DNA of 64,000 bases, taken from NCBI GenBank assembly GCA_009692505.1, contig SHZC01000003.1, positions 9,169-73,168 on the forward strand, read 5' to 3'. Under the pieces are notes generated by a model. It searched no databases. It was not told the origin of the DNA and saw only the letters and a program-made list of their open reading frames with translations. The position numbers were made by a program, and so were the translations under genes. This DNA is from Myxococcales bacterium (GTDB lineage Bacteria > Myxococcota_A > Bradymonadia > UBA7976 > UBA1532). Positions 6,587 through 41,677 of the stretch are shown here, in pieces (the first letter of the stretch is position 1; each line of letters starts with the position of its first letter).

Positions 6587-7213
6587 ATGCCCCGTACTCG
6601 TGAGCAGATGGCCCAGCGGGCCGCCCAAGAGCTGAAGGATGGCTCCATCGTCAACCTCGGCATCGGCATCCCGACGCTCGTGGCCAACTATGTGCCGCCC
6701 GGCATCGAGGTCATGTTCCACAGCGAGAACGGGCTGCTCGGCATGGGCCCCTACCCCTTCGAGGGCGACGAGGATCCGCAGGTGATCAACGCCGGCAAAG
6801 AGACCGTGACCATCGCGCCCGGCGGGAGCGTCTTCGACAGCGCGGCGAGCTTTGCCATGATCCGCGGCGGGCACGTGGACCTCGCCATCCTCGGCGGCAT
6901 GGAGGTCAGCGCGACAGGCGATCTCGCCAACTGGATGGTGCCCGGAGAGCGCGTCAACGGGATGGGCGGCGCGATGGATCTTGTCAGCGGCGCGCGGCGC
7001 GTCGTGGTCCTCATGAGCCACGCCAACAAGAAGGGCGAGCCGAAGCTGCTTGCGACCTGCGGCCTGCCTCTGACGGGCCTCGGCTGCGTAGACCGAATCA
7101 TCACCGACTACGCCACCGTCGACGTGACGCCCTTGGGCTTCAAGCTCGTCGACGTCGCCGAAGGGCATACGGTCGAAGAGGTCCGGGCACTCACCGGCGC
7201 GCCGCTGCTTTAG
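6587..7213 (+). CDS. scoB: 3-oxoacid CoA-transferase, subunit B
   Basis: 208 aa with GSIVNLGIGIPTLV, SENGLLGMGP (catalytic Glu context) and GGAMDLVSGA. This is the typical beta subunit of a family I CoA-transferase. Confidence 0.85.
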   Translation: MPRTREQMAQRAAQELKDGSIVNLGIGIPTLVANYVPPGIEVMFHSENGLLGMGPYPFEGDEDPQVINAGKETVTIAPGGSVFDSAASFAMIRGGHVDLAILGGMEVSATGDLANWMVPGERVNGMGGAMDLVSGARRVVVLMSHANKKGEPKLLATCGLPLTGLGCVDRIITDYATVDVTPLGFKLVDVAEGHTVEEVRALTGAPLL

Positions 7214-7911
7214 ACCTCGCGTGGCCTCACCGTGAGCTTCTCGATCGGGTCCTCATAGCCTTTGCCCACGAAGAGCCGCTGCACGTACAGGCCAGGCAGG
7301 TGGATGTCGTCGGGGCCGAGATCACCGAGCGACACCAGCTCCTCCACCTCGACGACGCAGATGCGAGACGCCATGGCCATCAGCGGGCTGAAGTTCCGGG
7401 CGGTCTTGTAGAAACGCAGGTTGCCGAAGGGGTCACCCACTCGGGCGCGGATGATCGCGTAGTCAGCGGTCAGCGGCGCCTCGAGGATCATGCGCTTGCC
7501 GTTGATGATCCGCTCCTCCTTGCCGTTGGCGACCACGGTGCCGACGCCCGTCGGCGTGAAGAACCCGCCGATGCCGGCCCCGCCCGCGCGAATCCGCTCG
7601 GCGAGCGTGCCCTGGGGGTTGAGCTCGACCTCAATCTCGCCTGAGAGCATCTGAGACTGGACGTCGGGATTACCGCCGATGAAGCTGGCGATGACCTTCT
7701 TGACCTGACGGTGTTGAAGCAAGGCGGCGAGGCCCTTGCCGGCGTTGCCGCAGTTATTGCTGACCACCGTGAGGTCCCGGATGCCGGAGCGGACCAGCTC
7801 GGCGATGCAGTTCTCGGCGTTGCCGCAGAGGCCGAAGCCGCCCGACATGAGGCTGATGCCGTCGCGCACATCGTGCAGGGCGGCGGTCGCATTCTCGTAG
7901 ACCTTTTTCAC
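7210..7911 (-). CDS. scoA: 3-oxoacid CoA-transferase, subunit A
   Basis: 233 aa with DGISLMSGGFGLCGNAENCI, VVSNNCG and ELNPQGTLAERIRAGGAGIGGFFTPTGVGT. GTG start at 7911 overlaps the upstream aminotransferase stop (GTGA). Its stop overlaps the scoB stop on the opposite strand (TTAG at 7210-7213). Confidence 0.85.
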   Translation of the reverse strand: MKKVYENATAALHDVRDGISLMSGGFGLCGNAENCIAELVRSGIRDLTVVSNNCGNAGKGLAALLQHRQVKKVIASFIGGNPDVQSQMLSGEIEVELNPQGTLAERIRAGGAGIGGFFTPTGVGTVVANGKEERIINGKRMILEAPLTADYAIIRARVGDPFGNLRFYKTARNFSPLMAMASRICVVEVEELVSLGDLGPDDIHLPGLYVQRLFVGKGYEDPIEKLTVRPREV

Positions 7912-9230
7912 GCAAATACCTCAGTCAACGCGTCGTCGATGAGCAGAAGGCCCCGGTTTAAGTCGTCTTCGTCGATGCAGAGCGGCGGGGCAATAAAGAG
8001 ATAGTTCCAGCGAAGGAGAATATGCAGCCCGCGCTGATGCAACGCGAGCTTCAGGCGCGCCGCCTTCGAGCCGGGGATCAGCGCGCCATTATAAGGCACG
8101 AGCGGCGTCTTCAAGACCCGGTCGGTGACGAGCTCGAGCGTGCCGAAGAGGCCGAGGTTTCGCGCGTCACCGACGACCTCGTGCTTGGCCTTCAGCGCCT
8201 CAAGGCCCCGTTTCAGGACCTCACCCATTCGCGCCGCGTTCCCGATCAAGTCGTCGCGTTCGTAGAGGTCGATCGTTGCGTTGGCCGCGGCGCAGGCGAT
8301 GGGGTGGGCGTAGTTCGTCAGGCCGCATTGGAGCGCGCGCTCGTCGAAGTGCGCGGCGACGCGGTCGGTCAGCCCCACGGCCCCGAGCGGCGCGTACCCG
8401 CTCGTGATGCCCTTGCCCATCGTGATGAGGTCCGGCTGCACGTCCCAATGATCGACCGCGAACCACTTGCCCGTGCGGCCGAAGCCCGTGAAGACCTCGT
8501 CGGCGACGAGCAGGATGCCATACTTGGTGCAGAGCTCCCGCAGGCGGGGCCAGTACTCGGGGGGTGGCACGAAGCCCCCGTTCGCGCCCGTGACGCCCTC
8601 GATAAAGACCGCGGCGATGCGCTCCGGGCCCTCCATCTGGATGACGTGCTCGAGGTGCTCGGCGCACTGCACGCCACAGCCGGGGTAGGTCTGTCCGAAG
8701 GGGCAGCGGTAGCAGTACGGATCCTCGATGCGTTCGACGCCCCAGAGGCCGGGCTCGGCGGCCCAACGTCGCGGATCACCCGTAAGCGACAGCGCGCCCA
8801 TCGAGGCCCCGTGATAGCTCCGCCGCCGCGCGATGATCTTGCTTCGGCCGGTCACGAAGCGGGCCATCTTGAGGGCGTTCTCATTCGCCTCGGCGCCGGA
8901 GAGGCAGAGGAAAAACTTGGAGATCCCCTCGGGCGTCACTCGCGCGAGCCGCTCCCCGAGCGCGGCTTTGGCCTCGAAGACCGCCGCCGGATGAGCGCAT
9001 GAGAGCGTGCTCGCCTGACTTGCGATGGCCTCTGAGATCGAGGCCTGACCGTGGCCGGCGTTGCAGTTGAAGACCTGGCTCTCGAAGTCCAGAAACTCGC
9101 GCCCGTCGTGATCGACGAACCTCGCACCACGCCCTCCAGAGATGCGGACCGACGCCGCGCTGCCCTGGGCGCTCCAGGTGAACATGACGTGCTTGCGCTG
9201 CCGCGCCTCCAGGTCGTCTCCCGCGCTCAT
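7908..9230 (-). CDS. Class III (omega-type) aminotransferase
   Basis: Carries CLSGAEANENALKMAR, VADEVFTGFGRTGKWFA and DLITMGKGITSGYAPLGAV (PLP lysine context). The start is taken at ATG 9230 (MSAGDD...), which forms an ATGA overlap with the upstream stop. The longest ORF would start at 9272. Confidence 0.85.
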   Translation of the reverse strand: MSAGDDLEARQRKHVMFTWSAQGSAASVRISGGRGARFVDHDGREFLDFESQVFNCNAGHGQASISEAIASQASTLSCAHPAAVFEAKAALGERLARVTPEGISKFFLCLSGAEANENALKMARFVTGRSKIIARRRSYHGASMGALSLTGDPRRWAAEPGLWGVERIEDPYCYRCPFGQTYPGCGVQCAEHLEHVIQMEGPERIAAVFIEGVTGANGGFVPPPEYWPRLRELCTKYGILLVADEVFTGFGRTGKWFAVDHWDVQPDLITMGKGITSGYAPLGAVGLTDRVAAHFDERALQCGLTNYAHPIACAAANATIDLYERDDLIGNAARMGEVLKRGLEALKAKHEVVGDARNLGLFGTLELVTDRVLKTPLVPYNGALIPGSKAARLKLALHQRGLHILLRWNYLFIAPPLCIDEDDLNRGLLLIDDALTEVFA

Positions 9231-10294
9231 GCCTCGACCTCCACGACTCGGTAGGACGAGCCGTTGATGCACCCTCGACGCGCGAGGATATGCGAGCGGG
9301 TCGGGTCGCAGATGATGGCACCACAGGTCTTGCTCGCGGCCGGGTCGTCGCCTTGAAGGTGGGAGCAGAGGCTGCGGGGCAAGCCGTCGTGGCTGCCAAG
9401 CAGCGTCCAGAGCGCGTCGATGTCGGCCGGTCTGGTCGTGGACGAGGCGAGCTTGCCGGTCAGCGTCTCGAAGCGATCACACGTCGTGCTCGTGCTCAAC
9501 GCGGGCACCTCGAAGGCCCGGAGTTCGGGGTCGAGGTAGTGGTTCGTGTGCCAGTACCAGGCGCTCGCGTCCCGAAACGTGACGCGCTTCTCCACGCCCG
9601 TGGTCTCGACGTTGAACACGCGTGCGCGGTCGGCGATGAGGTAGTTGTGCCCACTGCTCAACTGCGCCCGCATGAGGACCTCCAGGGCCGCCTCGGCCGT
9701 CCGCTCCCGCAACATTCGCCGCACGAGCGCCGGCCATAGGATGCCCACCCGCGCGTCGTTCGGCGTGAGGTTATTGATGCAGACCGAGACCCCGAAAGCG
9801 TTCAGGCCGGTCATACCCAGGCAGCCCGTCAGCGTGAAGAGGACGACGGGCGGGGCGTCTCTCGGCTTGAGGCGCAGGAGCGTCACGAAGGGCTCGGCCG
9901 TGCCATGCATATCCCACGTCTGCGCCGAGACGTTGCCACCGACGAGCGGCGCGTAGACCACGCTGCAGCCGCCATCGTCCGGCGGTATGTCCCGGAAGTC
10001 GGTGTAGTGATTCAGAATGACGAGCTGCCAAGGCTCGAGCCCAGACGCCCTCGCGAAGCCGTTGAGCTCGTCGGAGAGGTCGCCATCGAAGCTGCGAAGA
10101 ACCTCGACGTGCGCCTGTGCTTTGGCGTGGAGCTGATCCACGTCCCGGATTCGGCTCCGCAGCCGCAGCAGTCGCCAGCGCAGACCAAAGAGCGCGCAGG
10201 CTTGTTCCCCGAGGCGCTCGCCCTGCTGCTCACCTTGCTCGCGTGGGGTGCCGGCGTCGATGTCGCACAGCTCAATCTTTTCGTCGCCGCTCAC
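9227..10294 (-). CDS. Peptidase C45 / acyl-CoA:6-aminopenicillanate acyltransferase-like Ntn hydrolase
   Basis: 355 aa. A Gly-Cys pair in DDGGCSVVYAP lies about residue 107. That is where the AAT/C45 family self-cleaves to expose the Cys nucleophile. The downstream TWDMHG and GMTGLNAFGVSVCINNL blocks fit my recollection of this family. GTG start overlaps the upstream stop (GTGA). Confidence 0.6.
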   Translation of the reverse strand: MSGDEKIELCDIDAGTPREQGEQQGERLGEQACALFGLRWRLLRLRSRIRDVDQLHAKAQAHVEVLRSFDGDLSDELNGFARASGLEPWQLVILNHYTDFRDIPPDDGGCSVVYAPLVGGNVSAQTWDMHGTAEPFVTLLRLKPRDAPPVVLFTLTGCLGMTGLNAFGVSVCINNLTPNDARVGILWPALVRRMLRERTAEAALEVLMRAQLSSGHNYLIADRARVFNVETTGVEKRVTFRDASAWYWHTNHYLDPELRAFEVPALSTSTTCDRFETLTGKLASSTTRPADIDALWTLLGSHDGLPRSLCSHLQGDDPAASKTCGAIICDPTRSHILARRGCINGSSYRVVEVEA

Positions 10295-13200
10295 GTCGAC
10301 GCCCAGGCGCGACCGAGGATCGTCGCCAGGCGGGAGAGCTTCGCCGGGCTCGAGGTGATGGGCGGGGCGATGAGCCGCGTGAAGGGTGTGTCGAGCGGGG
10401 TGCGTCCGAGCCTGACCCCATGCTTCAGGAGCAAGTCGTCAAGTTGATTGACCTTCTCCTCGTCGGCCGTGAGCACGCGATACAGCCCGAGGCCCGTCGT
10501 CGGGACGTTCGCGCGAGCGAGCGCGGCCTCCAGCGCCGAGACCCCCGCCGCGACGTCGTGCCCCTCGATGGCGTAGTACTGCCAGAGCAGGCGCGTCGCC
10601 GAGAGCTCGTCGCCATCCCATGTGCTGATGAGCGTCAAGGGCTCAGCGACGTAGCAGCGGTCGTTCGTATAGACGTGGCCCATCTGTCCACCCGCCCAGA
10701 ACAAGATGAGATCCGCCTCGCCAGCCAGCGTGTCGGCGTACCACCGAGCGCGCCCCGTGCGGTGCAGGCCCGTGGCGTTCTCGAGGAGCACGAGCGGCAC
10801 GCCGGTCCGGTCGCGAAGGGAGACGAGCCCGGCCCAAGCCTCTGGCGACAGCACGCGACCCGTCCTCTGCTGGACCGCCTCGATGTAGATCCCCAGGATG
10901 TTGTCGGCTCCTGTTCGAGCAACCAGCGCCTCGAGCTCGGTCAAGTCGTCGTCGGGGTGCGGCAGGATCGGCCAATCGAACCACGCGAAGGGCGCACCCG
11001 AGGCCGCACCGCCGAGGGAAGCATCAGTCAGGGACCGGGAGGCGGCGGTCGTATGCCCGGCATAGCCCCCCCGAAACGACAAGGCCATGCGGCCTGAGGC
11101 GCGGTTGTGACGAAGCGCACGCAGGCTCTTGTCGACCGTCTCGTCATTGCCGCTCGCGAAGTAGAGGTGCTTCATGCCCTGAGGCGCGCAGTGGCGGAGG
11201 TACTCGGCGTACCGCGCATAAGCCGGCGTGATGAAGTTGCTCACTGTGAGCTTCGTCAGCGACGCCTCGTCGAAGGTGCCCAACGCTCGAGCGCGCCTGA
11301 GCAGCGGGTGCTCGGCGCCGGTGGGAGAGGCGATGCCGCTGCGGAGATCGAGGCTGTCATCGCCTCCGTCGGCGAGGAGCCCAGGCCCGGCGAACGCGCG
11401 GCGATCGTGACGGCGCAGGGCGATTCGGTAGTAGCGGGTGCGACCGGCGTGCTCGCCGTATTGACCGTCGTACACCGCCGCGCAGTAGGCACCCATGTGC
11501 TGATTAAGCGCCCACATGGCGTCGGCGGACTCCACGCGATTTCGACCCGTAATGAAGGCGTAGCGGGGCTCGCCGTCCGGTCGTCGCCGAGCCAAGGCCT
11601 CGTGCACCTGCCGCTGCCTCAGACGTAAGCCGATGCCCCGACCCCGCGCGCGCCGGGCGACCGTGACGTCTGCGCTGTACAAGGTGTTGTCGCGCCCGAG
11701 GTTCTCGTCCTGCCGGGGTCCATCAATGGCCCACCACAGCTCGAGGGGACCGGCGAAGCTCATGCCCACGAGGCCCCGGCTGTCCTCGGCGACGAGCACG
11801 AGGCCGCCGTCACTGCCGGCCACGGTCCGAAGGTAGGTGATCTCGTCGCGACGCGCGGCCTCGTAGGCGTCCGTCTCCAGGGCCAAGATGGACTCGATGA
11901 GCTCGTCGAAGCCGGCCGGCGTGAGCAAGCGGATCCGCGTGCCCAGGACGTCGGCGGCGAAGCGCAGCAGGGAGACGCCCACGGCGGCCTCGAACGCTGC
12001 GGCGTCGGCGCTTCTCAGGGCGGGAACGGCGGCGAGCCCCAGCGCGCGGTCAGAGAGCCGTAAGAACGCCGCGCCGGTCTCGCGCTCGGCCGCGCAGAGC
12101 TCCCCGTGGACCCGAAGGACCTGGTCGGCGGTCTCGGGTCGGGGGTTCGCGAGCAAGGCCTCGAGGGTGGGCACACGGACCCGCCTCGGCCCATGCGCAG
12201 AAGCGACCCACGCCGGTGCGGTGCAGGCGTTCAGCCGAGCGACGAGGCCGTCTCCCTGTCCCCCACCCTGCGCCACGAGCGCGCCGAGCGAGCGGTCGAT
12301 GATGTCGAAGATGAGCTCGACGTCCGCGGCCGTGGTCGCTCGATTGAGCCGGAAGCGGAGCGTGAGCTCGCCGGCCGGGTAGATCATGTAGCCCTGATAA
12401 AACCGCTGGGCGATCAGGTGCTTGACGATGGCGGGCGACGGCAAGTCGAAGGCGAAGGCGTCTCCGAAGGTGCGGGGTCGCGACACCAGATCGGGCCAGA
12501 GCTCGACGAGCTCATCGAGCTTGCGGGTGACGGTCTCCTCCAGGAGCACCGGCGGCCAGACGAGCTCGAGGTGAACCCGGCCTCGGGCGATGCTCGCCGC
12601 GTGCGCCGCGGCGGGGCGCGCATCGGGCCATCGCGAGAGGACCACGCCGACCTGGGCGCGTTTGGCGCAGGTGACCAGATCCGGCGCGTCGGGCCGCCCC
12701 TGCTCGTCGATGAACCAGAAGTTTCGGTGCCAGAAGAACGCCCCGGAGAGGCCGAAGCCCGTCTGCACCTCGTCGAGGATGAGCGGCACGTTCCAGGCCC
12801 GCGTCAGGAGTCGGAGGCCGTGATAAAACCGCCGTGTCGCCGCGCGATCACCGCCCTCGCACTGATAGGGCTCGATGAGGACCGCCGCGCAGTCCCCCTT
12901 CTCAAGCTGAGCCTCGACGGCGAGCAGGCTGTGCACCTCAAGCTCGAGCAGCGGATCGCCGTCGCCCAAGAACCGCCCGCGGTCGAGCGAAGGCATCGCC
13001 CAGTGCTCCCGCCAGCCGACGGGCACGATGGGGTTGGCGTAGGGGTCGTCGCCGGCGGGGTAGACGACGAACTCGGTCTCGTAGCCCTTGATTTGGTATC
13101 GGGCCCGCTTCTGGGGGCTCCACGTCGCGAAGAGCGGGATGAGCGTGCGCCCGTGAAAGCTGCCCTCGAAGGCGATAACTCGACAACCCCCTTGACCATG

Positions 13201-13935
13201 TCGGCGGGCGAGGTCGAGGGCCTTCTCGTTCGCCTCTGAGCCGCCGCTGGTGAACGAGACATGCTTCAGCTCGGGGGGGGCAAACTTGAGGAGTTCGCGC
13301 GCGTAGTCGGCACCCTCGTCGCGCCGATCGGCCGCGTCGATGAGGGCCGCGTCGAAGTGACCTTCGTCCAGCGCGGACTGCACCGGGCCTGGGCGGAAGC
13401 CAGCCGGCAAGGACGCGATCTGGCTCGCCGCGTCGATGATTTGGATCGCGTCGTGGTCGATGCTGCGCAGGAACGATCCACGGCAGAGCCTGAGGTCAAC
13501 GACGATGGGCTTCTTCTCGCGAGGCAGGAAGTCGCCGCCGTAAAACCGCTCGAGGAAGGCGCTGGACTCGGGCAGGGCCCCGCTCTCCGGAATTTCGAGA
13601 CCCGCCGCCGGGGGGATGAGGAACGTCGCGCTATCGCCTTCGTAGAGTCGATTGAGAAACGCGATGAAGCGGTCTTCGGCGACCTCGAAGGGCTCGTCGC
13701 CGTCGAGCCGCAGCGGCAGGAAAATCGCCGTTTCGTCCGAGGTGAGGCCGCACTCCGAGGCGATGGCTTGGGCTCGGGGGACCGTCAAACGGCGACCCGC
13801 GTCGTGTACCTTCGTGAGGCCCGACAGAGGCAAGCGCGGCGCGTCGACGCCCGGCGTGCCGTCGAGCAGGAGGCCATGCCGCGAGGCGACCTCTTCGTAC
13901 CGGTGGAACTGCATCAAACGAGTCAGCGTATTCAT
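10291..13935 (-). CDS. Tri-domain fusion: class III aminotransferase / GNAT acyltransferase / second, lysine-less class III aminotransferase-like domain
   Basis: About 1214 aa from ATG 13935, which forms an ATGA overlap with the ALDH stop. Domain 1: FTSGGSEANEKALDLAR, FEGSFHGRT, LILDEVQTGFGLSG, DLVTCAKRAQVG (Lys present). Domain 2: LVLVAEDSRGLVGMSF...VARRARGRGIGLRLRQ (GNAT acetyl-CoA loop R/Q-x-x-G-x-G). Domain 3: YFASGNDETVDKSLRALR, FRGGYAGHT, LVLLENATGLHRTG, DLILFWAGGQMGHV (no Lys at the equivalent position). Confidence 0.75.
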   Translation of the reverse strand: MNTLTRLMQFHRYEEVASRHGLLLDGTPGVDAPRLPLSGLTKVHDAGRRLTVPRAQAIASECGLTSDETAIFLPLRLDGDEPFEVAEDRFIAFLNRLYEGDSATFLIPPAAGLEIPESGALPESSAFLERFYGGDFLPREKKPIVVDLRLCRGSFLRSIDHDAIQIIDAASQIASLPAGFRPGPVQSALDEGHFDAALIDAADRRDEGADYARELLKFAPPELKHVSFTSGGSEANEKALDLARRHGQGGCRVIAFEGSFHGRTLIPLFATWSPQKRARYQIKGYETEFVVYPAGDDPYANPIVPVGWREHWAMPSLDRGRFLGDGDPLLELEVHSLLAVEAQLEKGDCAAVLIEPYQCEGGDRAATRRFYHGLRLLTRAWNVPLILDEVQTGFGLSGAFFWHRNFWFIDEQGRPDAPDLVTCAKRAQVGVVLSRWPDARPAAAHAASIARGRVHLELVWPPVLLEETVTRKLDELVELWPDLVSRPRTFGDAFAFDLPSPAIVKHLIAQRFYQGYMIYPAGELTLRFRLNRATTAADVELIFDIIDRSLGALVAQGGGQGDGLVARLNACTAPAWVASAHGPRRVRVPTLEALLANPRPETADQVLRVHGELCAAERETGAAFLRLSDRALGLAAVPALRSADAAAFEAAVGVSLLRFAADVLGTRIRLLTPAGFDELIESILALETDAYEAARRDEITYLRTVAGSDGGLVLVAEDSRGLVGMSFAGPLELWWAIDGPRQDENLGRDNTLYSADVTVARRARGRGIGLRLRQRQVHEALARRRPDGEPRYAFITGRNRVESADAMWALNQHMGAYCAAVYDGQYGEHAGRTRYYRIALRRHDRRAFAGPGLLADGGDDSLDLRSGIASPTGAEHPLLRRARALGTFDEASLTKLTVSNFITPAYARYAEYLRHCAPQGMKHLYFASGNDETVDKSLRALRHNRASGRMALSFRGGYAGHTTAASRSLTDASLGGAASGAPFAWFDWPILPHPDDDLTELEALVARTGADNILGIYIEAVQQRTGRVLSPEAWAGLVSLRDRTGVPLVLLENATGLHRTGRARWYADTLAGEADLILFWAGGQMGHVYTNDRCYVAEPLTLISTWDGDELSATRLLWQYYAIEGHDVAAGVSALEAALARANVPTTGLGLYRVLTADEEKVNQLDDLLLKHGVRLGRTPLDTPFTRLIAPPITSSPAKLSRLATILGRAWAST

Positions 13936-15458
13936 GTCGTGCTCCGAGCCTTGGAGTCCTGCGCGGCGAGCAAGCCGTCGAGTTGGGGATTGGCCGTCCG
14001 CTGCGCCGACGTGCCGGCCATCACGGCCACCGGATAGGTGCACAGACGAGGCGCGGCCGAGCCCGCCGGGAACCAGTTACCGCTCTGCCCCACGCCCCCA
14101 AAAGGCAGGAGGCCCGACGCGCCGTTCGTGCTCCGATTGAAGTTCAGAACCCCGGCGGCGACCTCGTCGTAGAAACGCTCGAAGGTCTCCGGCCGCGACG
14201 AGAAGAGCGAGGCGCTCAGCCCATAGTCGTTGGACCCGGCACGTCGAAAGGCGTCGTCTTCGTCCGCGGCGACCTCAAACGCGACGTGCGGGCCGAAGAG
14301 CTCCTCGTGCACGATCGCCTCGTCCCCCGAGACCTCGTAGAGACCCGGCGTGACATAGATCCCGCCACCGGAGGGACCACCGATCGCGTTCGCCTCGACC
14401 AAGACCCGCGCGCCTTGGGCCCGGGCGGCGGCGAGGAGCGCGAGGTAGCGGTCACGAGCCGAACGCTGGGCGAGCGGCCCCATGAACGTGGACTCGAGGG
14501 TGGGGTCGCCCGGCACGATCGCGGCGAAGGCCTCGGTCAGCGCGTCCCGGAGGCGCGACGCGATAGCCGGCGCAGCGATGACGCGGCTCGTGGCGGTGCA
14601 CCGCTGGCCGGTGGTGAGTAACGCGCCGAGCACGATCTCGCGGACACAGTGGTCGAATCCAAGGCCTGCCGGATCGTCGAGCAGATCGTCCAGGACCACC
14701 GCGGGGTTCTTGCCCCCCAACTCCAGGCAGACCTTCTTGAACGGCTGGTCGAACGTGGCCTGCCGGATGTGCCGCCCCGTCGCATAGGAGCCGGTGAAGA
14801 TGAGGCCGCGCACGTCCCGATGGACCGCGAGGGCCGCACCGGTGGCCGCGAGCCCGTGGATGAGGTTGAAGACCCCGTCCGGCAGCGCGGCGTCGGCGAA
14901 GAGCGCGGCGTACCTCTGCCCCGTCAGAGGGGTCAGCTCGCTCGGCTTGGCGACGACTGTGTTCCCGGTGAGGAGCGCGGGCACGAGGTGCGTATGGACG
15001 AGGTGCAGGGGGAAGTTGAACGGCCCGATGATCCCGACGACCCCAAGCGCGTGAAAACGCTGTTCACCCGGGGCGCCGACGGGGGCAGGCGGGAGCTCGG
15101 AGTCGAGCTGCGCGAGCACGCCGTCAATCTTCGCGCCGAGCAAGCTCACCTCGGCGCGGGACTCGGCGATGGTCTTGCCCATCTCGGCGGTGATGGCCTC
15201 CGCCAGACCTGCGGCATGACGTGGGAGGGCCGCCTTGACGCGCAGGAGGGCGTCGGCTCGAGAGGTCCGACCCGCGCGTCGCCACGCAGGAAGAGCGGCC
15301 CGAGCGGCAGAAACCGCAGCCTCGACTTCATCGACATCGGCGCGGGCCTCGAAGACGATCTCATCGGCCTTCGACGGGTCCGTCGAGGCGAAGCGGTCGC
15401 CCCGCCCCGACGCGACGAAATCGCCGCCAATGAACGACCCACGAAACGGCTCGGTCAT
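13932..15458 (-). CDS. NAD(P)-dependent aldehyde dehydrogenase (semialdehyde dehydrogenase type)
   Basis: Carries FIGGDFV, FNFPLHL, VAKPSELTP, ELGGKNP and TTGQRCTA (catalytic Cys), plus EELFGP. The start is taken at ATG 15458 (MTEPFRG...), an ATGA overlap with the udg stop. Confidence 0.85.
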   Translation of the reverse strand: MTEPFRGSFIGGDFVASGRGDRFASTDPSKADEIVFEARADVDEVEAAVSAARAALPAWRRAGRTSRADALLRVKAALPRHAAGLAEAITAEMGKTIAESRAEVSLLGAKIDGVLAQLDSELPPAPVGAPGEQRFHALGVVGIIGPFNFPLHLVHTHLVPALLTGNTVVAKPSELTPLTGQRYAALFADAALPDGVFNLIHGLAATGAALAVHRDVRGLIFTGSYATGRHIRQATFDQPFKKVCLELGGKNPAVVLDDLLDDPAGLGFDHCVREIVLGALLTTGQRCTATSRVIAAPAIASRLRDALTEAFAAIVPGDPTLESTFMGPLAQRSARDRYLALLAAARAQGARVLVEANAIGGPSGGGIYVTPGLYEVSGDEAIVHEELFGPHVAFEVAADEDDAFRRAGSNDYGLSASLFSSRPETFERFYDEVAAGVLNFNRSTNGASGLLPFGGVGQSGNWFPAGSAAPRLCTYPVAVMAGTSAQRTANPQLDGLLAAQDSKARSTT

Positions 15459-16252
15459 GGCTTTCTCGGGGCGCGCTCGAGGCGGGTCATGACCATTTTT
15501 AGGATCTCCCAAGCCTTACGTTTTTCGTCAGGGTTCTTGACCAAATAAGCCGGCGAATAGCCGACGAGGACCGGTCGATTCGAGACGGTGTGCCACTTGC
15601 CGAGGAGTCCTCGGACGCCGGACGCGGTCCCCAGAAGGATACGCGTCGGCAGCGCCCCACAGGTGACGATGACCTCGGGCGAGACGAGCTCAATCTGGGC
15701 GAGCAGGAAGCGACGGCAGGCGGCGATCGAGTCGGCCTCGGGCTCGACGGCGGCGACGCCTGGGTGGCACATGACGACGTGGCCCAGATAGACGCTCGTG
15801 CGACCGAGCCCCATGGCCCCGATCATCTTCTCGAGGAGCGCGCCGGCTTCGCCCCCATACGGCTTGCCGGTCGCGTCGTCTTCAATCGCCGGCGCGTCGA
15901 GGACGAAGAGTACGCGGGCGTCGACGGGGCCATGCCCAAAGACGATATGGCTCCGGGTGTTCGAGAGCGGGCAGCGCTGGCAGTCCCCGACCTCGGCGCG
16001 CAGGGCCTCGAGGGCCGCTTGGCGATCGGCCGGTGAACGGACGAGCACAGGGACGGCCGTGGGCGCGGGCCCCTGAGGCTGGCGATCACGAGACGCGGGC
16101 GGCGTGGGTGCGTCGTGGGCAAACGGGCGGTCCGGCGGATTGAACGTCGGCGCTTTAAAGCCCGGCGGCACGGGCAGAGCGTGGTCGCCCGTCTCCTTGT
16201 GCCAGAGCAGGGCCCCCCGCATCGCCGAGACGAGGGCGCGAAGTTCGTCCAT
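15455..16252 (-). CDS. udg: Uracil-DNA glycosylase superfamily protein, family 4-like (4Fe-4S type), divergent motifs
   Basis: CQRCPL...VFGHGP...VLFVLDAPAIEDDATGKPYGGEAGALL...VVMCHP...IAACRRF...GYSPAYLVKNPDEKRKAW shows four Cys spaced as in family 4 UDGs. A Pro-rich N-terminal extension of about 100 aa is present. The start is taken at ATG 16252 (MDELRALV...). The longest ORF would start at 16291 inside the repeat. Confidence 0.7.
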   Translation of the reverse strand: MDELRALVSAMRGALLWHKETGDHALPVPPGFKAPTFNPPDRPFAHDAPTPPASRDRQPQGPAPTAVPVLVRSPADRQAALEALRAEVGDCQRCPLSNTRSHIVFGHGPVDARVLFVLDAPAIEDDATGKPYGGEAGALLEKMIGAMGLGRTSVYLGHVVMCHPGVAAVEPEADSIAACRRFLLAQIELVSPEVIVTCGALPTRILLGTASGVRGLLGKWHTVSNRPVLVGYSPAYLVKNPDEKRKAWEILKMVMTRLERAPRKP

Positions 16253-16257
16253 CACGT

Positions 16258-16326
16258 TCAAGCTAATCGTCGAGCGTCGCAGGAGGCCCATCGTTGCTGA
16301 GCGACGAGGGCGCGAAGTTCGTCCAT
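16258..16326 (-). other. Mini-ORF 2 (22 codons, MDELRALVAQQRWASCDARRLA) created by the junction duplication
   Basis: The ATG is at 16326. The TGA at 16258-16260 lies 5 nt before the udg ATG at 16252. It corresponds to the tail of track ORF 16258..16746. Confidence 0.3.
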
Positions 16327-16331
16327 CACGT

Positions 16332-16373
16332 TCAAGCTAATCGCTGAGCGACGAGGGCGCGAAGTTCGTCCAT
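16332..16373 (-). other. Mini-ORF 1 (13 codons, MDELRALVAQRLA) created by the junction duplication
   Basis: The ATG at 16373 lies 5 nt after the coaBC TGA (16379-16381). Its own TGA (16332-16334) lies 5 nt before the next ATG. Whether it is translated is untested. Confidence 0.3.
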
Positions 16374-16378
16374 CACGT

Positions 16379-17602
16379 TCAAGGCGACGGGCTCCCGGCG
16401 AGCCGCTCGGCCATGAATACGACGAGACGTTCGCCGATCGCGGCCTTGCTGAGCACCGGGAGCTCGACGATGCCCTCTGCGGTGACCAGGGAGACGCGGT
16501 TGGTGTCGACCCCGAAGCCCGCGCCCTCAGCCGTGATGTCGTTGGCGACGATGAGATCGCAACGCTTGCTGATGAGCTTGGCACGAGCATATTCCAAGGG
16601 GGGACCGGACTCCGCCGCGAAGCCGATGAGCAGCGGGGAGGCGCCGACTCGGGAGGCCCCAAGCTCGGCGAGAATGTCCGGATTTCGGACGAGCTCCAGC
16701 GACTGCACTTCGTCAAGCTTCTTGACCTTCGTCGCGGACACGGCACGGGCCCGGTAGTCCGAGACGGCGGCGGTCATCACCACGACGTCGACCCCCGGCA
16801 GGTGCGCCATGACCGCCGCGTGCATCTCGATCGCTGTCGTCACCGCTACGGAAGAAACCCCCGGCGGCAGCGGCAGGGAGCAGGGCCCGTGGATGAGCGT
16901 GACCTCGGCCCCGGCCCGAGCGGCAGCTGCGGCGATTTCAAAGCCCGCCTTGCCCGTCGACGGGTTGCTGAGGAAGCGAACGGGATCAAAGAACTCTCGC
17001 GTCGGTCCCGCGGTCACGAGCACCCGCCGACCCACGAGCACCCTCGGCGTCAGCGCGGCGACGACGGCGTCGACGATGGCCTCGCTCAAGGCGAGCCGAC
17101 CGGGCCCCACCGCGCCACAGGCGAGCGCGCCGGCGTCGGGCTCGACGATCTGGTACCCCCTCTCGCGCAGGATCCGGAGGTTGTTCTGCGTGGCCTCGTT
17201 CTCGTACATCGCCGTGTTCATCGCCGGGGCGAAGAGCACGGGCGAGCGGCGCGGCCTCGTGGCGAGCAAGACCGTCGAGACCACCTCATCGCCAATCCCG
17301 GCCGCGCACTTCGCCAGGATGTTCGCGGACGCCGGCACGACGAGGAGGACGTCGTTCTCCTGCGCGAAGGCGATGTGCCCGATCTCCATCTCGTCTGAGG
17401 GATCGAGCGTGCGGGTCAGCACCGGGAGGTGCGTGATCGCCTGGAACGTGAGCGGCCCGACGAAAGCCTGCGCGTTCGCGGTCATGGCCACCTGAACCAC
17501 CGCGCCGGCCTTCTGGAGCAAGCGCACGGTCTCGACCGCCTTGTAGGCGGCGACGCCCCCACAGACGGCGACGTGAACGCGGCGATTGACCAGCGACGAC
17601 AC
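16379..17602 (-). CDS. coaBC: Bifunctional phosphopantothenoylcysteine decarboxylase / phosphopantothenate-cysteine ligase
   Basis: VAVCGGVAAYKAVETVRLLQKAG, PAMNTAMYEN and VLVTAGPTREFFDPVRFLSNPSTGKAG, with C-terminal AAVSDYR. The longest ORF starts at 17668. GTG 17602 (VSSLVNRRVHVAV...) gives the usual short N-terminus, but the start remains uncertain. Confidence 0.85.
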   Translation of the reverse strand: MSSLVNRRVHVAVCGGVAAYKAVETVRLLQKAGAVVQVAMTANAQAFVGPLTFQAITHLPVLTRTLDPSDEMEIGHIAFAQENDVLLVVPASANILAKCAAGIGDEVVSTVLLATRPRRSPVLFAPAMNTAMYENEATQNNLRILRERGYQIVEPDAGALACGAVGPGRLALSEAIVDAVVAALTPRVLVGRRVLVTAGPTREFFDPVRFLSNPSTGKAGFEIAAAAARAGAEVTLIHGPCSLPLPPGVSSVAVTTAIEMHAAVMAHLPGVDVVVMTAAVSDYRARAVSATKVKKLDEVQSLELVRNPDILAELGASRVGASPLLIGFAAESGPPLEYARAKLISKRCDLIVANDITAEGAGFGVDTNRVSLVTAEGIVELPVLSKAAIGERLVVFMAERLAGSPSP

Positions 17603-17952
17603 GGCGCGGGATTCTACGTCACGGCATCCTGAGGGTAAAGGCGGGCGGCGGGGGCCGGGGGGGGGCACCGCATCGAGCCGCGGCCCTGTGCCGACCTACC
17701 CGGCGACGAACCTCATCGAGCGCCTCACCGGGTTCAAGGTGCAATTGCCTTGGGGAGATCACGCTTCTGGGGTCGGTCGCGCTCGCCTCCGGCTTGACGG
17801 CGAACCTCGTCAATCCCAGCCGCTCGGTTGCGTGCGGCCCTGGCGACTGATACGCCTTGGGCGGCCCTTTTCTTCTCCTCGACTCCACGCGCGCGGCACC
17901 GTTCAATCTGCCGGACTTCGTACAACTGGCCCCCGGCGGAGGAGTTTTCCAC

Positions 17953-20900
17953 ATGTCCAACTGGCGCCGCCCCCAACTGGCCCCCGGCATCTACGACGAG
18001 CCGATCAGCCAGCACCTGCAAGAGCAGCTCGAAGGCCTGACCTCTGGCTTCCTGGTCGAGCGCCACACGTCCACTGATGCCGAGCCGGCCGGACTACCGC
18101 TGGAGTCACTCCTCGGGGACGCCATCGGCCTCGCCCTGCAATCTGTGGGCGACAAGCGAACAGCGATCCTGGCGCTGGCCCAGGAGGTGCTCGCGGTGCT
18201 GCACAAACACGCCCCACGTGCATTTCCCCGCGCGGGCGAACTGCAACTGCTCAACGAACGGTTGCTGTCCATCGCCGAGCAGCCAGCCGCAGCGCCCAAA
18301 CGCCCGCGGGGGTCGCTGCACGCGTCCAGCCTGCTGGTCAATGCCGAGGGCGAGCAGCTGCACGACCACCTACGCAGCGAGTTCGACAGCGCCGACCGGG
18401 TGGACCTGCTCTGCGCGTTCGTGAAGCTCAGCGGCTTCGAGAAGGTTCGCACAGAGCTCGAGCGTCACTGTGTATCGCGCGGCCGGCCGCTGCGCGTGTT
18501 GACGACGACCTACATGGGGGCCTCGGACGCGGTGGCCATCGAGCGGCTGGCTGCTCTGGCCAACGCCGAAGTCAAGGTCTCGTACGACGAGCACACCACG
18601 CGCCTCCACGCCAAGGCCTGGGTCTTCCACCGCGCGAACGGCTACTCCACGGCGTATGTCGGCTCGTCCAATTTGTCGCACGCGGCGCAGACCGATGGGC
18701 TGGAGTGGAACGTCCGCGTCACCGAGCGAGGACAGCCCGCCCTGGTCGCCCAGATGGTCGAGACCTTCGAGCAATACTGGGGCGCGCCGCATCAGTTCGA
18801 GTCATTCCGGCCGGGGCACGCGGGGGATCGCGCGCGGCTGAGCCGGGCCCTCTCTCCGAGCGCCCGCGCGCCGGACGGGACCACCCTGCAATTCGACATC
18901 GAGGCCAAGGACTTCCAGAAGCCCATCCTGAGCGAGCTGGTCGCCGCCCGTGTGCTCGGCAGACACAAGAACCTGCTGGTCGCCGCGACCGGAACCGGTA
19001 AGACGGTCATGGCGGCGCTCGACTACCAGCAGCTCCGGCAGGAGGGCGCGGTCGACACCCTGCTGTTTGTGGCGCATCGGCGGGAGATCCTCGACCACGC
19101 CCTCGCCACGTTCCGCGCCGTCCTTAAGGTCAGCGGCTTCGGCGAGTTACTGTGCGAGGGCGAGAAGCCGGCGATTGGTCGACATGTGTTCGCCTCGATC
19201 GACTCGCTGGCAGGGAACACTGTGGACCCGGCTGCGTTCGACCTGGTGATCATCGACGAGGCGCATCACTCCCCCGCTGACAGCTGGGAAGGGCTCCTGA
19301 AGCGCATCCGTCCCAAGCAGCTTCTGGGCCTGACCGGAACGCCGGAGCGCGCCGACGGGCTGGACCATGAGCGCCACTTTCCGCGTCCGTGGATCGGCAA
19401 TCTGCGGGTCTGGACGGCGATTCCGCACGCCCTAGTGCCGTTTCGATACTACATGCTCGACGTCCAGGGCGTGGACCTTCGCGACGTCGCGTGGACGGCG
19501 GGCAAGTATGCCCCACTGGCGTTGGCGGGGAAGCTGATCGGGGCGGCTGAAGTCTTCGTGCACCGCGCGGTCCAGGCCGTCACCGAACGCATCGCGCGGC
19601 CGGACAACCTGCGGGCCATTGCCTTCTGCGCGGACGTGCGCCACGCGGAAGAGATCCACCGGCGCTTCCTGGGCCACGGCTTCCGCAGCCAGGTCCTGAC
19701 CGGCACGACGCCAAAGCAGGCGCGACGCCAGGCGCGGTCGGACCTGGACAGCGGACAGATTCAGGTGCTGTGCGTGGTCGACATCTACAACGAGGGCGTC
19801 GACGTCCCCAACGTCAATACCCTCTTCTTCTTCCGCCCCACGGAGAGCGCGACGGTCTTCCTGCAACAGTTGGGACGCGGCCTGCGCCGGGCGCCCGGCA
19901 AGTCCGAGCTGGTGGTTTTCGACCTGACGGGCCGCCAGCACCTGAACTTCCGCTTCGACCGCAAGCTCCGCGCGCTGCTCGGCCACACCCCACGTGAGGT
20001 CCATCACCTCGTGAAGGCCGGTTTCGGACGATTGCCCGCCGGGTGCCATCTGCACTTCGACGAGCAGGCGCGCCAAGACATCCTCGACCAGATCAAGCGC
20101 GCGATCCCCTCGGACGAGACGGGGATCCTCGCGCTGTTGCACGAACCGGCCCATTCGGAGCTGTCGCTGGACGAGTTCCTGAAAGAGACAGACGTCGAGC
20201 TCAATGACGTGTACCGCCAGCGCCGGTCCTGGACAGGGCTCAGGCGGAAGTTGCACCTGGATCGAAGGACGCTGGCCGACGGTGAGCCGATCGTCCTCGA
20301 CAGAGTCCACAAGCTGACCCATGTGGGCGATGAGGCGAGGCTGGAGCTCTGGCAGCGGCTGGTGGACTTGGAGCCGACCCGTTCCGAACGCGAACACCGT
20401 CTGGCCCGCATGCTGTTTGCGGTGCTCTATGGCAAGGAAGCGGCGGCCAACGGTGAGGCCGAGAGATTGTGGAGCACGCATGCCAGTGTGCGGGACGACG
20501 TGCGGGGGTTGATTCCCGTGTTACGGCGGCTGAATGCGATCCTGCCGGAGTCGCACACCCTGTTGCAGGACGTGCCGATCGTGCTTCACGCGCGGTACCT
20601 CGGGGTCGAGCTGAGCGCGGCGTTTGACGACCGGAGCAGCACAGGTTGGTTCCGCGACTACTTCACCGGCGTGGAGACCATCGCGGGCGGTCGCTTCGAC
20701 CTGCTGCTGGTGACGATGGAGAAGGCCGCCGCGACCAAGGAACACTTGCGGTATCGAGACTTTCCGCTCTCGGACAGGCAGTTCCACTGGCAGTCGAAGG
20801 CCCGCACGACCCTGGACTCCAAGGATGGGCGGCGGCATCTGCATCCGGAGCGGGAAGGCGTCACGCCGCTGCTGCTGGTGCGCGAGCTGGCCCATGAGGC

Positions 20901-21042
20901 GAACGGGCGGACCATGGCGTTTCGGTATCTCGGACCCGTCCACCCGCTGAGGCACGCGGGGGAGCGGCCGATCTCGGTGGAGTGGGGGTTGCGGTTTGCG
21001 ATGCCGGCCGAGGTGCTGGCGAGCGGACGGGTGGCCGCGTAG
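17953..21042 (+). CDS. SauUSI-like type IV (modification-dependent) restriction enzyme: PLD-family nuclease + SF2 helicase + DUF3427
   Basis: 1029 aa from ATG 17953, with GGAGG about 9 nt upstream. The HKD motif LHAKAWVFHR...GSSNLS lies at about 18607-18678. Walker A ATGTGKT lies at about 18982-19006 and DEAH at about 19255-19266. The helicase C region carries VVDIYNEGVDVPNVNTLFFFRPTES and QQLGRGLR. The C-terminal block LLLVTMEK...YRDFPLSDRQFHWQSKARTT...LLLVRE...FRYLGPV fits my recollection of DUF3427. Confidence 0.8.
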   Translation: MSNWRRPQLAPGIYDEPISQHLQEQLEGLTSGFLVERHTSTDAEPAGLPLESLLGDAIGLALQSVGDKRTAILALAQEVLAVLHKHAPRAFPRAGELQLLNERLLSIAEQPAAAPKRPRGSLHASSLLVNAEGEQLHDHLRSEFDSADRVDLLCAFVKLSGFEKVRTELERHCVSRGRPLRVLTTTYMGASDAVAIERLAALANAEVKVSYDEHTTRLHAKAWVFHRANGYSTAYVGSSNLSHAAQTDGLEWNVRVTERGQPALVAQMVETFEQYWGAPHQFESFRPGHAGDRARLSRALSPSARAPDGTTLQFDIEAKDFQKPILSELVAARVLGRHKNLLVAATGTGKTVMAALDYQQLRQEGAVDTLLFVAHRREILDHALATFRAVLKVSGFGELLCEGEKPAIGRHVFASIDSLAGNTVDPAAFDLVIIDEAHHSPADSWEGLLKRIRPKQLLGLTGTPERADGLDHERHFPRPWIGNLRVWTAIPHALVPFRYYMLDVQGVDLRDVAWTAGKYAPLALAGKLIGAAEVFVHRAVQAVTERIARPDNLRAIAFCADVRHAEEIHRRFLGHGFRSQVLTGTTPKQARRQARSDLDSGQIQVLCVVDIYNEGVDVPNVNTLFFFRPTESATVFLQQLGRGLRRAPGKSELVVFDLTGRQHLNFRFDRKLRALLGHTPREVHHLVKAGFGRLPAGCHLHFDEQARQDILDQIKRAIPSDETGILALLHEPAHSELSLDEFLKETDVELNDVYRQRRSWTGLRRKLHLDRRTLADGEPIVLDRVHKLTHVGDEARLELWQRLVDLEPTRSEREHRLARMLFAVLYGKEAAANGEAERLWSTHASVRDDVRGLIPVLRRLNAILPESHTLLQDVPIVLHARYLGVELSAAFDDRSSTGWFRDYFTGVETIAGGRFDLLLVTMEKAAATKEHLRYRDFPLSDRQFHWQSKARTTLDSKDGRRHLHPEREGVTPLLLVRELAHEANGRTMAFRYLGPVHPLRHAGERPISVEWGLRFAMPAEVLASGRVAA

Positions 21043-37689: not shown

Positions 37690-38112
37690 TCAGCCGAAGA
37701 TCTCGGTCCCTCGGAAGAACCAGGAGATCTCGAAGGCAGCCGTGTCGGTCGCATCGGAGCCGTGGACCGTATTGGCCTCGATGCTCTCGGCGAGGTCCGC
37801 GCGGATGGTGCCGGGGGCCGCGTTTTTGGGGTTCGTCGCGCCCATGAGATCCCGATTACGCAGGATGGCGCTCTCGCCCTGGAGCACGAGGACGACGACG
37901 GGCCCGCTCGTCATGGAAGCGACGAGATCGTTGAAGAAGGGTCGCTCCTTGTGGACCGCGTAGAAGCCCTCGGCCTCAGCCTTCGACAACACGCACTGGC
38001 GCGTCGCGACGACCTTGAGGCCGGACTTCTCGAAGCGGCCGAGGATCTCGCCGATGAGGTTCCGGCGGACGCCGTCGGGCTTGATGATGCTGAGGGTACG
38101 TTCGATTGCCAT
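37690..38112 (-). CDS. ndk: Nucleoside diphosphate kinase
   Basis: [12 protein letters not shown] and GATNP, with NTVHGSD (catalytic His). Confidence 0.95.
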
Positions 38113-38178
38113 GATTCTACTCCGAGCCGATGTGGCCTAAAAAAGTCGGGCGCATTGTACGGAAACGGGCGCGCACTT

Positions 38179-38241
38179 CAAGGTGGGTTGCTGAGCCCGC
38201 AAGGTCGGTTGCTGAGCCCGCAAGGTCGGTTGCTGAGCCCG
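38179..38241. repeat. Intergenic tandem repeat, 3 x 21 bp (CAAGGTSGGTTGCTGAGCCCG)
   Basis: Units at 38179-38199, 38200-38220 and 38221-38241. Only one substitution (G/C at unit position 7). Lies between the sucD stop (38247) and the ndk start (38112). Confidence 0.95.
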
Positions 38242-38246
38242 AGACC

Positions 38247-39116: not shown

Positions 39117-39119
39117 GTT

Positions 39120-40292
<1,173 letters not shown>

Positions 40293-40303
40293 GTCGGTCT
40301 CCC

Positions 40304-41677
<1,374 letters not shown>

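Follow-up and report, generated by a model that had tools for sequence, protein, structure and literature searches.

The 64,000-nucleotide (nt) stretch analysed here (hereafter, the window) comes from a Myxococcales bacterium (GenBank assembly GCA_009692505.1, contig SHZC01000003.1) and carries on its minus strand a tightly packed gene chain. At the core of the chain is a three-domain fusion protein, accompanied by an aldehyde dehydrogenase (ALDH), a C45-family hydrolase, a stand-alone class III aminotransferase (AT3) and a 3-oxoacid coenzyme A (CoA) transferase (ScoAB). Judged from sequence, the metabolic half of this chain may be a conserved catabolic module that strips both amino groups from a diamino acid, for which L-beta-lysine is the best candidate, and this is the reading that we tentatively prefer. 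The domain identities, the pattern of catalytic residues and the co-conservation of the genes were observed directly and are given first. The genes and domains concerned are:

6587-7213, plus strand: scoB, 3-oxoacid CoA-transferase subunit B, 208 residues, with the SENG motif of the catalytic Glu (TIGR02428 score 319.5, cut-off 243.55)
7210-7911, minus strand: scoA, 3-oxoacid CoA-transferase subunit A, 233 residues (TIGR02429 score 249.4, cut-off 128.5)
7908-9230, minus strand: AT3, stand-alone class III aminotransferase of the omega/beta type, 440 residues (PF00202, E = 1.5e-86)
9227-10294, minus strand: C45-family autoproteolytic N-terminal nucleophile (Ntn) hydrolase/acyltransferase, 355 residues (NF040521 score 175.8, cut-off 85; PF03417 match)
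10291-13935, minus strand: fusion protein, 1214 residues, consisting of an aminotransferase like lysine epsilon-aminotransferase (LAT), a GNAT domain and a pseudo-aminotransferase (profile, motif and fold comparisons)
12241-13548, minus strand: N domain of the fusion, residues about 130-565, catalytically complete class III aminotransferase (profile, fold and motifs)
11356-11958, minus strand: middle domain of the fusion, residues about 660-860, divergent GNAT acyltransferase (RGRGIG motif A at residues 764-769)
10294-11283, minus strand: C domain of the fusion, residues about 885-1214, class III aminotransferase fold without the Asp and Lys that hold pyridoxal phosphate (PLP) (motif alignment)
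13932-15458, minus strand: AstD-like NAD(P)-dependent ALDH, 508 residues, with the catalytic ELGGKN and GQRCTA motifs (PF00171, E = 1e-108)

The fusion protein (NCBI MSP70716.1) is annotated only as a class III aminotransferase in the "Myxococcales bacterium" metagenome-assembled genome, and PF00202 matches it in two stretches. The closest solved relative of the N domain is LAT of M. tuberculosis (Rv3290c; PDB 2cin, 2jjf), both by profile (E = 4e-39) and by fold, followed by the gamma-aminobutyrate (GABA) aminotransferases, with putrescine aminotransferase also among the relatives. LAT is merely the closest relative, as the score against TIGR03251 (L-lysine 6-transaminase) is 131.5 bits, below the cut-off of 520.8. 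DEVQ at residues 388-391 and the PLP lysine Lys425 (codon 12661-12663), which aligns with K300 of LAT, are invariant in 83 homologues. The N domain also keeps the glutamate switch of the EGGD motif and the arginines of the RFR and FHGR motifs, the latter of which we take to be the residue that binds the substrate carboxylate in LAT and in the GABA aminotransferases. Unlike LAT, which has the trans-acting Thr motif STWGGN, the N domain has lost this motif and shows SRW at residues 434-436 instead.

The C domain shows the complementary pattern. In every lineage aligned, its PLP Asp (LLENATG) is replaced by L, V or N and its PLP Lys (WAGGQMGH) by A, S, G or L, and its STWDGD motif (Thr1105) is invariant. 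The complementary losses of the two folds are likewise invariant over the 83 homologues. In the dimers of class III aminotransferases, this Thr binds the PLP phosphate of the partner subunit. Because the two folds lose complementary catalytic residues, the alignment suggests that the fusion is a single-chain, intramolecular pseudo-heterodimer with one complete active site and with the GNAT domain in the linker; the N fold would give the PLP Lys and Asp, and the dead C fold would give the phosphate-binding Thr in trans. An AlphaFold2 (AF2) model of residues 101-1214 is compact (pLDDT 93.8, pTM 0.93). The sequence-only reading of this DNA had described an acyltransferase fused between two aminotransferase folds, and both folds and the acyltransferase are indeed there, but the C fold is not an aminotransferase, having lost the PLP Lys and Asp.

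The GNAT domain matches PF00583 weakly in the window protein (E = 0.025, under the Pfam cut-off), but all the 14 family members tested match it (best 4.9e-7) and the predicted fold agrees, so that the earlier assignment holds. The AF2 model of the domain (pLDDT 90.4) was superposed by Foldseek on RimI, Naa60, YncA and phosphinothricin acetyltransferase (PAT) with TM up to 0.82. Only the generic families PF00583 and PF13508 were matched, and diamine acetyltransferases were found among the weak matches. AstA (PF04958) was absent among the Pfam families in the 14 members at E <= 1 and from the top 50 Foldseek matches.

For the window ALDH, the top NCBIfam models are those of AstD, with scores below their cut-offs (NF006992, 350 bits, cut-off 514; TIGR03240, 339 bits, cut-off 579), compared with about 190-216 bits against models of succinate-semialdehyde dehydrogenase (SSADH). 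The cluster ALDH was of the AstD type in every phylum tested, namely Myxococcota, Vulcanimicrobiota and one Planctomycete-type cluster. In locus L064, the ALDH at the end of the cluster (19204-20682) scored 683 bits and passed the 579-bit AstD equivalog cut-off with no other gene of the arginine succinyltransferase (AST) pathway there, and the ALDHs of L127 and L036 were just under the cut-off. In many relatives, the ALDH is joined to the N-terminus of the fusion protein to give proteins of about 1650-1800 residues, suggesting that the acyltransferase, aminotransferase and ALDH steps are consecutive.

The C45 protein (MSP70715.1, a hypothetical protein in NCBI) has a predicted processing site and nucleophile at Gly109-Cys110, and it aligns to isopenicillin-N acyltransferase (2x1d, E = 2e-12) with the Cys aligned. 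This Gly-Cys pair falls in the top alignment band (at least 93% conserved) in 44 cluster-linked C45 proteins. The protein thus resembles isopenicillin-N acyltransferase and other C45 proenzymes in its putative Gly-Cys autoproteolytic site and N-terminal nucleophile, but its identity to that enzyme is low and it stands in a bacterial, catabolic context. The C45 family includes acyltransferases that use acyl-CoA. AT3 is closest to the taurine:2-oxoglutarate aminotransferase among solved structures (6jix, E = 4.5e-87), then to amine, GABA and omega transaminases, and its group is that of the omega/beta-amine transaminases rather than the alpha-aminoadipate type. The domain calls of the sequence-only reading were confirmed, PF00202 matching twice in the fusion and PF03417, PF00171 and PF01144, like NF040521, passing their cut-offs.

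The CoA-transferase is complete in the window. The sequence-only reading had ended the chain at scoA, overlooking scoB, which lies on the plus strand and is convergent with scoA, the two stop codons interlocking at TTAG (7210-7213), so that the functional end of the set is not at scoA. This inversion of scoB is conserved in the clade of the window, sometimes with one or two inserted genes, and elsewhere scoA and scoB are co-directional. The scoB start lies about 30-65 bp from the start of the divergent queA.

In the protein collection, the fusion family numbers more than 500 homologues, and scanning one genome per species found relatives in 176 species. When 80 genome loci were mapped by tblastn, the core order of fusion, C45, AT3, scoA and scoB was found in five groups: Myxococcota, Bradymonadia, Bdellovibrionota, Planctomycetota (Pirellulales) and Vulcanimicrobiota. 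Among the genome loci whose sequence continues for at least 5 kb downstream of the fusion gene, 55 in number, 35 had C45, 41 had AT3, 37 had scoA, 31 had scoB and 34 had ALDH. AT3 and scoA are adjacent in most loci, and 80 metagenome loci repeat the conservation pattern. Co-conservation of the gene set, raised by the sequence-only reading for Myxococcota, therefore holds far past that phylum, across five phylum-level groups and 176 species.

Related clusters contain further genes. In seven Planctomycete-type genome loci (L052, L054, L056, L060, L064, L065 and L082), a KamA-family radical-SAM aminomutase is encoded between scoA and scoB (for example, L054 16198-17601), and in the metagenome locus L130 a KamA-like gene follows scoA at the point where the contig stops, before any scoB could be seen. 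The KamA-like protein passes the TIGR00238 subfamily model (232, cut-off 199) and is below the AblA equivalog cut-off (274 against 525). It aligns with lysine 2,3-aminomutase (2a5h, E = 4e-68) at CxxxCxxC, Asp293, Asp330 and the PLP lysine Lys337, the two Asp being presumably the residues that bind the epsilon-ammonium of the substrate in that enzyme. A thiolase directly follows scoB in L054, L056, L060 and L064 and is found nearby in three more loci. Only the generic TIGR01930 is passed by this thiolase, a match that does not separate the 3-oxoadipyl-CoA type from the acetoacetyl-CoA type. In two Myxococcales loci, a KamA-like gene lies 4-5 kb away on the opposite strand.

From these observations, we infer a substrate, an acyl donor, an order of steps and a domain arrangement that together would make up two modules. 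The first, which is AST-like, would consist of the GNAT domain, the LAT-like aminotransferase, the AstD-like ALDH and C45, and would acylate one amine, transaminate the distal amine, oxidise and deacylate. The second would consist of AT3, the 3-oxoacid CoA-transferase and, in some lineages, the thiolase, and would carry a beta-amino acid through the 3-oxoacid to its CoA ester and on to cleavage. Both modules would suit a substrate that has a distal amine as well as a beta-amino group, and the in-cluster aminomutase points to beta-lysine. The near-constant adjacency of AT3 and scoA fits the sequence from a beta-amino acid to a 3-oxoacid to a 3-oxoacyl-CoA.

In detail, L-beta-lysine (3,6-diaminohexanoate) would be formed from lysine by a 2,3-aminomutase, and the GNAT domain would acylate its 3-amino group from an acyl-CoA, giving N3-acyl-beta-lysine; succinyl-CoA would be the likeliest donor because the ALDH is of the AstD type. 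The LAT-like site would move the 6-amino group to 2-oxoglutarate, producing N-acyl-3-amino-6-oxohexanoate, in which the acyl group would block cyclisation, and the AstD-like ALDH would oxidise this aldehyde to N-acyl-3-aminoadipate. The C45 Ntn hydrolase would then strip the acyl group to leave 3-aminoadipate, which AT3 would convert to 3-oxoadipate, and ScoAB, a member of the PcaIJ/ScoAB family, would form 3-oxoadipyl-CoA. The final products, succinyl-CoA and acetyl-CoA, would come from a thiolase, whose gene is part of the cluster in four Planctomycete-type loci and presumably lies elsewhere in the genome of the window. We favour this order because of the gene fusions between ALDH and the fusion protein, the AstD type of the ALDH and the gene order, which matches the order of the steps. 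The sequence-only reading had regarded the substrate as unreadable. KamA and thiolase in the Planctomycete-type clusters and the 3-oxoacid type of the CoA-transferase point to beta-lysine, but the pathway itself is still one that we infer. No description of the gene set or of a route from beta-lysine to 3-oxoadipate was found in the full-text literature searched. With slightly less confidence than in the module as such, we suggest that this could be an undescribed, non-fermentative lysine or beta-lysine route to 3-oxoadipate, a "beta-lysine acyltransferase pathway", with the fusion as the key enzyme and C45 as the deprotecting one, widespread both in predators (Myxococcota, Bradymonadia and Bdellovibrionota) and in Planctomycetota and Vulcanimicrobiota.

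Several observations weigh against the beta-lysine module. KamA is found in the cluster only in Planctomycete-type loci, and neither KamA nor a thiolase was found in the 64-kb window by tblastn. ScoAB and a thiolase are also the generic pair of acetoacetate utilisation. In Bdellovibrionota and in most Planctomycete loci, the cluster has no ALDH next to it. The structural neighbours of the GNAT domain are generic only, and neither the acylated nitrogen nor the acyl-CoA can be read from the sequence. Finally, about one locus in three, including those of close Bradymonadia-like relatives, has no C45 in the cluster, and for this reason the deacylase role may be filled by something other than C45 in such clusters. 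A separate observation on C45 comes from lineages with a fused ALDH, where C45 and scoA are adjacent but 6.5 kb from the fusion gene and on the other strand (L084 21812-23631; L085 15201-17008), with no scoB or AT3 near the pair; this adjacency hints at a direct relationship between C45 and the CoA-transferase.

The main rival also starts from beta-lysine. Barker and co-workers reportedly found that Pseudomonas B4 degrades L-beta-lysine via N6-acetyl-beta-lysine (EC 2.6.1.65, EC 3.5.1.51), and the route is said to include a 3-keto-6-acetamidohexanoate cleavage enzyme and to end with GABA and succinate semialdehyde; to our knowledge, its genes have not been assigned. If they were the genes described here, GNAT would acetylate N6 and AT3 would transaminate C3 to give 3-keto-6-acetamidohexanoate, which ScoAB and the thiolase, replacing BKACE, would convert to acetyl-CoA and 4-acetamidobutyryl-CoA. 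C45 would act as a deacetylase-thiolesterase to release GABA, the N domain of the fusion would be a GABA aminotransferase and the ALDH, whether fused or adjacent, would be SSADH. The same enzyme classes are needed, KamA and thiolase are found in the cluster, and GABA aminotransferases rank second among the relatives of the N domain; likewise, the membership of acyl-CoA-using acyltransferases in the C45 family and the survival of the C45-scoA adjacency away from the fusion gene agree with this scheme. However, the ALDH is consistently of the AstD type, up to passing the equivalog cut-off, and the SSADH models score far lower. Moreover, a GNAT domain built into an aminotransferase pseudo-dimer suggests consecutive steps, whereas the scheme sets them five steps apart, the gene order does not track its step order, and no BKACE (PF05853) was among the precomputed Pfam hits of five annotated neighbourhoods. 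We therefore consider the N6-acetyl route, which fits the ALDH type and the fusions less well, to be distinctly unlikely. The cluster does share with the Pseudomonas B4 route a likely beta-lysine substrate, N-acyl protection, transamination, a deacylase and the processing of a 3-oxoacid or CoA ester, and differs from it in the AstD type of the ALDH and in that no BKACE was seen in the annotated neighbourhoods.

L-lysine or L-ornithine could also be degraded as an alpha-amino acid by an AST-like pathway; this is in essence the model of the sequence-only reading, and we regard it as unlikely. Here GNAT would act at N2, the LAT-like aminotransferase would remove the omega-amine and the ALDH would yield N-acyl-2-aminoadipate or N-acyl-glutamate; after deacylation by C45, AT3 would remove the alpha-amine, and ScoAB would recycle the acid to acyl-CoA or serve ketone bodies. 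That LAT is the closest relative of the N domain, that the ALDH is AstD-type and that most clusters, including that of the window, are without a nearby aminomutase are all in accordance with such a pathway. It leaves unexplained, however, the 3-oxoacid type of the CoA-transferase, the near-universal adjacency of AT3 and scoA, and the aminomutase between scoA and scoB with the thiolase after scoB, and AT3 is of the omega/beta-amine group instead of the alpha-aminoadipate type.

More doubtful still is the catabolism of an N-acyl-protected diamine, in which putrescine or cadaverine would be taken through GABA or 5-aminovalerate to succinate or glutarate, the dicarboxylate that the CoA-transferase would then activate. 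Diamine acetyltransferases among the weak GNAT matches, and putrescine and GABA aminotransferases among the relatives of both aminotransferases, would suit it, and many of the hosts, judged by their taxa, are predators exposed to the polyamines of their prey. But the N domain keeps the FHGR arginine, presumably a ligand of the substrate carboxylate as noted above, an ALDH of the AstD type implies that the N-acyl semialdehyde carries a carboxylate, ScoAB belongs to the 3-oxoacid type, and the aminomutase is again left unexplained. Both the alpha-amino-acid and the diamine routes explain fewer of the conserved partners than the beta-lysine module. That there is no dedicated pathway, only unrelated genes packed into an operon whose overlaps are usual for compact, GC-rich genomes, is largely refuted by the conservation data and hardly credible: unrelated housekeeping genes do stand in the same chain (coaBC and a uracil-DNA glycosylase, or ddl in Bdellovibrionota) and 4-nt overlaps are common in bacteria, but in five phylum-level groups fusion, C45, AT3 and scoA/B are found together in spite of rearrangements, and the ALDH is repeatedly fused to the fusion protein.

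We then compared the beta-lysine module with known systems. Like the AST pathway, it would acylate one amine, use a class III aminotransferase on the distal amine and an AstD-type ALDH on the N-acyl semialdehyde, and deacylate. The analogy with AST drawn in the sequence-only reading is strengthened by the AstD type of the cluster ALDH in every phylum tested and by the orthologue that passes the equivalog cut-off. Unlike in AST, the acyltransferase is a generic GNAT and not AstA, and a LAT-like aminotransferase is joined in one chain to that GNAT and to a second, dead aminotransferase fold. Neither AstB nor AstE was found in the chain or in the annotated neighbourhoods, C45 sitting in the deacylase position, and the cluster goes beyond AST in having a second aminotransferase, of the omega/beta type, and a 3-oxoacid CoA-transferase, joined in some lineages by an aminomutase and a thiolase. 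Although the system would work along the lines of AST, it does not belong to that pathway, since AstA, AstB and AstE are absent and the window ALDH is below the AstD cut-off. The difference from LAT itself lies in the three-domain chain of 1214 residues, in which the lost STWGGN motif would be supplied by the second, dead fold; the PLP Lys, the Asp, the Glu switch and both Arg are conserved between the two proteins.

The lysine fermentation cluster consists of kamA, kamDE, kdd, kce, kal or kat, atoAD and thl, and in a variant of the pathway Kat, a class III aminotransferase, acts on the beta-amino group (PMC3149608). An aminomutase, a family-I CoA-transferase and a thiolase are brought together there, as in some of the related clusters described here, the aminomutase of the fermentation cluster being lysine 2,3-aminomutase. 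However, BKACE (PF05853), Kdd and KamDE were found neither among the precomputed Pfam hits of five neighbourhoods nor among the conserved neighbour clusters. In place of 5,6-aminomutase, Kdd, Kce and the ammonia lyase (Kal), there are the fusion, the AstD-like ALDH and C45, and this replacement indicates a route by transamination and oxidation, not fermentation.

The following features of the window precede the metabolic genes:

17611-17639, minus strand: promoter-like site, TTTACC-17-TAGAAT, ending 8 nt before the GTG start of coaBC at 17602 (consensus match only)
16379-17602, minus strand: coaBC, 407 residues, first gene of the packed chain (TIGR00521, 419.9 bits, cut-off 219.7)
16229-16400, minus strand: coaBC-stop/UDG-start junction repeated in tandem, its exact core of 34 nt standing three times and yielding two mini-ORFs (repeat search)
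16332-16373, minus strand: mini-ORF1, 13 codons, begins MDELRALVAQ
16258-16326, minus strand: mini-ORF2, 22 codons, begins MDELRALVAQ
15455-16252, minus strand: family-4 uracil-DNA glycosylase (UDG), 265 residues (PF03167, E = 3e-26; TIGR00758 score 126.6, cut-off 125.3)

All the junctions were read directly on the minus strand, and the five overlaps and three TGA-N5-ATG spacers are exactly where the sequence-only reading had put them. The stop of coaBC (16381-16379) is followed by the spacer ACGTG and an ATG at 16373, that of mini-ORF1 (16334-16332) by the same spacer and an ATG at 16326, and that of mini-ORF2 (16260-16258) again by ACGTG and the ATG of UDG at 16252. The 4-nt overlaps are ATGA between UDG and ALDH (15455-15458), ATGA between ALDH and the fusion (13932-13935), GTGA between the fusion and C45 (10291-10294), ATGA between C45 and AT3 (9227-9230) and GTGA between AT3 and scoA (7908-7911). 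In locus L002, whose fusion protein is 52% identical to that of the window, overlaps between fusion and AT3 and between AT3 and scoA recur and ALDH and fusion abut, indicating that the tight packing of the core is a conserved trait and no accident of a single genome.

The nine reading frames of the sequence-only reading are, however, seven genes, as the two mini-ORFs are artefacts of a duplicated coaBC/UDG junction. The 34-nt exact core, CTTGAACGTGATGGACGAACTTCGCGCCCTCGTC, occurs three times at 16229-16400; the repeat units are unequal (47 and 74 nt), so that Tandem Repeats Finder missed the triplication and a separate repeat search detected it. Every copy retains TGA-N5-ATG, which creates a stop-restart relay through two mini-ORFs that are not conserved. 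In L001, a 97%-identical relative from another assembly, two copies are present (L001 7600-7690) with a different reading frame of the mini-peptide, and in the more distant relatives L041 and L006 the junction is not repeated. A structured RNA regulatory element at this site was considered and rejected, the fold being no more stable than shuffles (z = 0.09). From the copy number in L001, the single junction further out, the unconserved frame and the unremarkable RNA fold, we interpret the repeat as a recent DNA-level duplication of variable copy number whose stop-restart spacing is kept by happenstance; the mini-ORFs are products of tandem duplication and not genes.

The linkage of coaBC and UDG to the metabolic set, which the sequence-only reading had included in its chain, is confined in the locus maps to the clade of the window. 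In Bdellovibrionota, a genuine D-Ala-D-Ala ligase gene (ddl) stands directly before the fusion gene in the same orientation (L050, L051, L053, L057, L059, L061, L063, L068 and L074, at about 8900-9950). A functional link between coaBC/UDG and the pathway was therefore rejected, and their linkage is most simply synteny, that is, housekeeping neighbours that are co-located or co-transcribed and not pathway members. Divergent from coaBC on the plus strand (17857-21042) is a gene for a 1061-residue product, which is absent at this position in the Bradymonadia relative L002 and whose L001 orthologue has PLDc_2, ResIII, Helicase_C and DUF3427 domains. On the minus strand at 37690-41677, some 30 kb away from the cluster, are apparent ndk, sucD, sucC and icd genes, named by inspection of their N-terminal sequences alone; they are housekeeping genes, and in the loci examined their linkage to the cluster is not conserved.

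As for signals of transcription, two sites with the promoter-like consensus were found compared with 0.9 expected in shuffles. Terminator-like sites were no more frequent than in shuffles, with none intergenic within the chain. Searching the whole window against Rfam at gathering thresholds and with a tRNA scan found nothing.

We rate the cluster as a probable case of acyl-protected amine catabolism with a previously undescribed enzyme architecture. If this is true, it would give a function to a family of 1200-1800-residue proteins in about 176 species, currently labelled only class III aminotransferase, and to its conserved partner genes, including an orphan C45 branch, which would be the first metabolic role for the large bacterial C45 family. 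The enzyme would also be of interest for its evolution and for the engineering of multi-step conversions of amines to acids, as a homodimeric PLP enzyme would have become a single-chain, asymmetric pseudo-dimer with a second catalytic domain inserted. Where the ALDH is fused, protection, transamination and oxidation would take place on one polypeptide. For predatory bacteria and planctomycetes, in which the breakdown of amino acids has been little mapped, the cluster would add a route for lysine-derived carbon and nitrogen, and it would possibly supply the genes behind a catabolism of beta-lysine that since about 1980 has been known from biochemistry alone.

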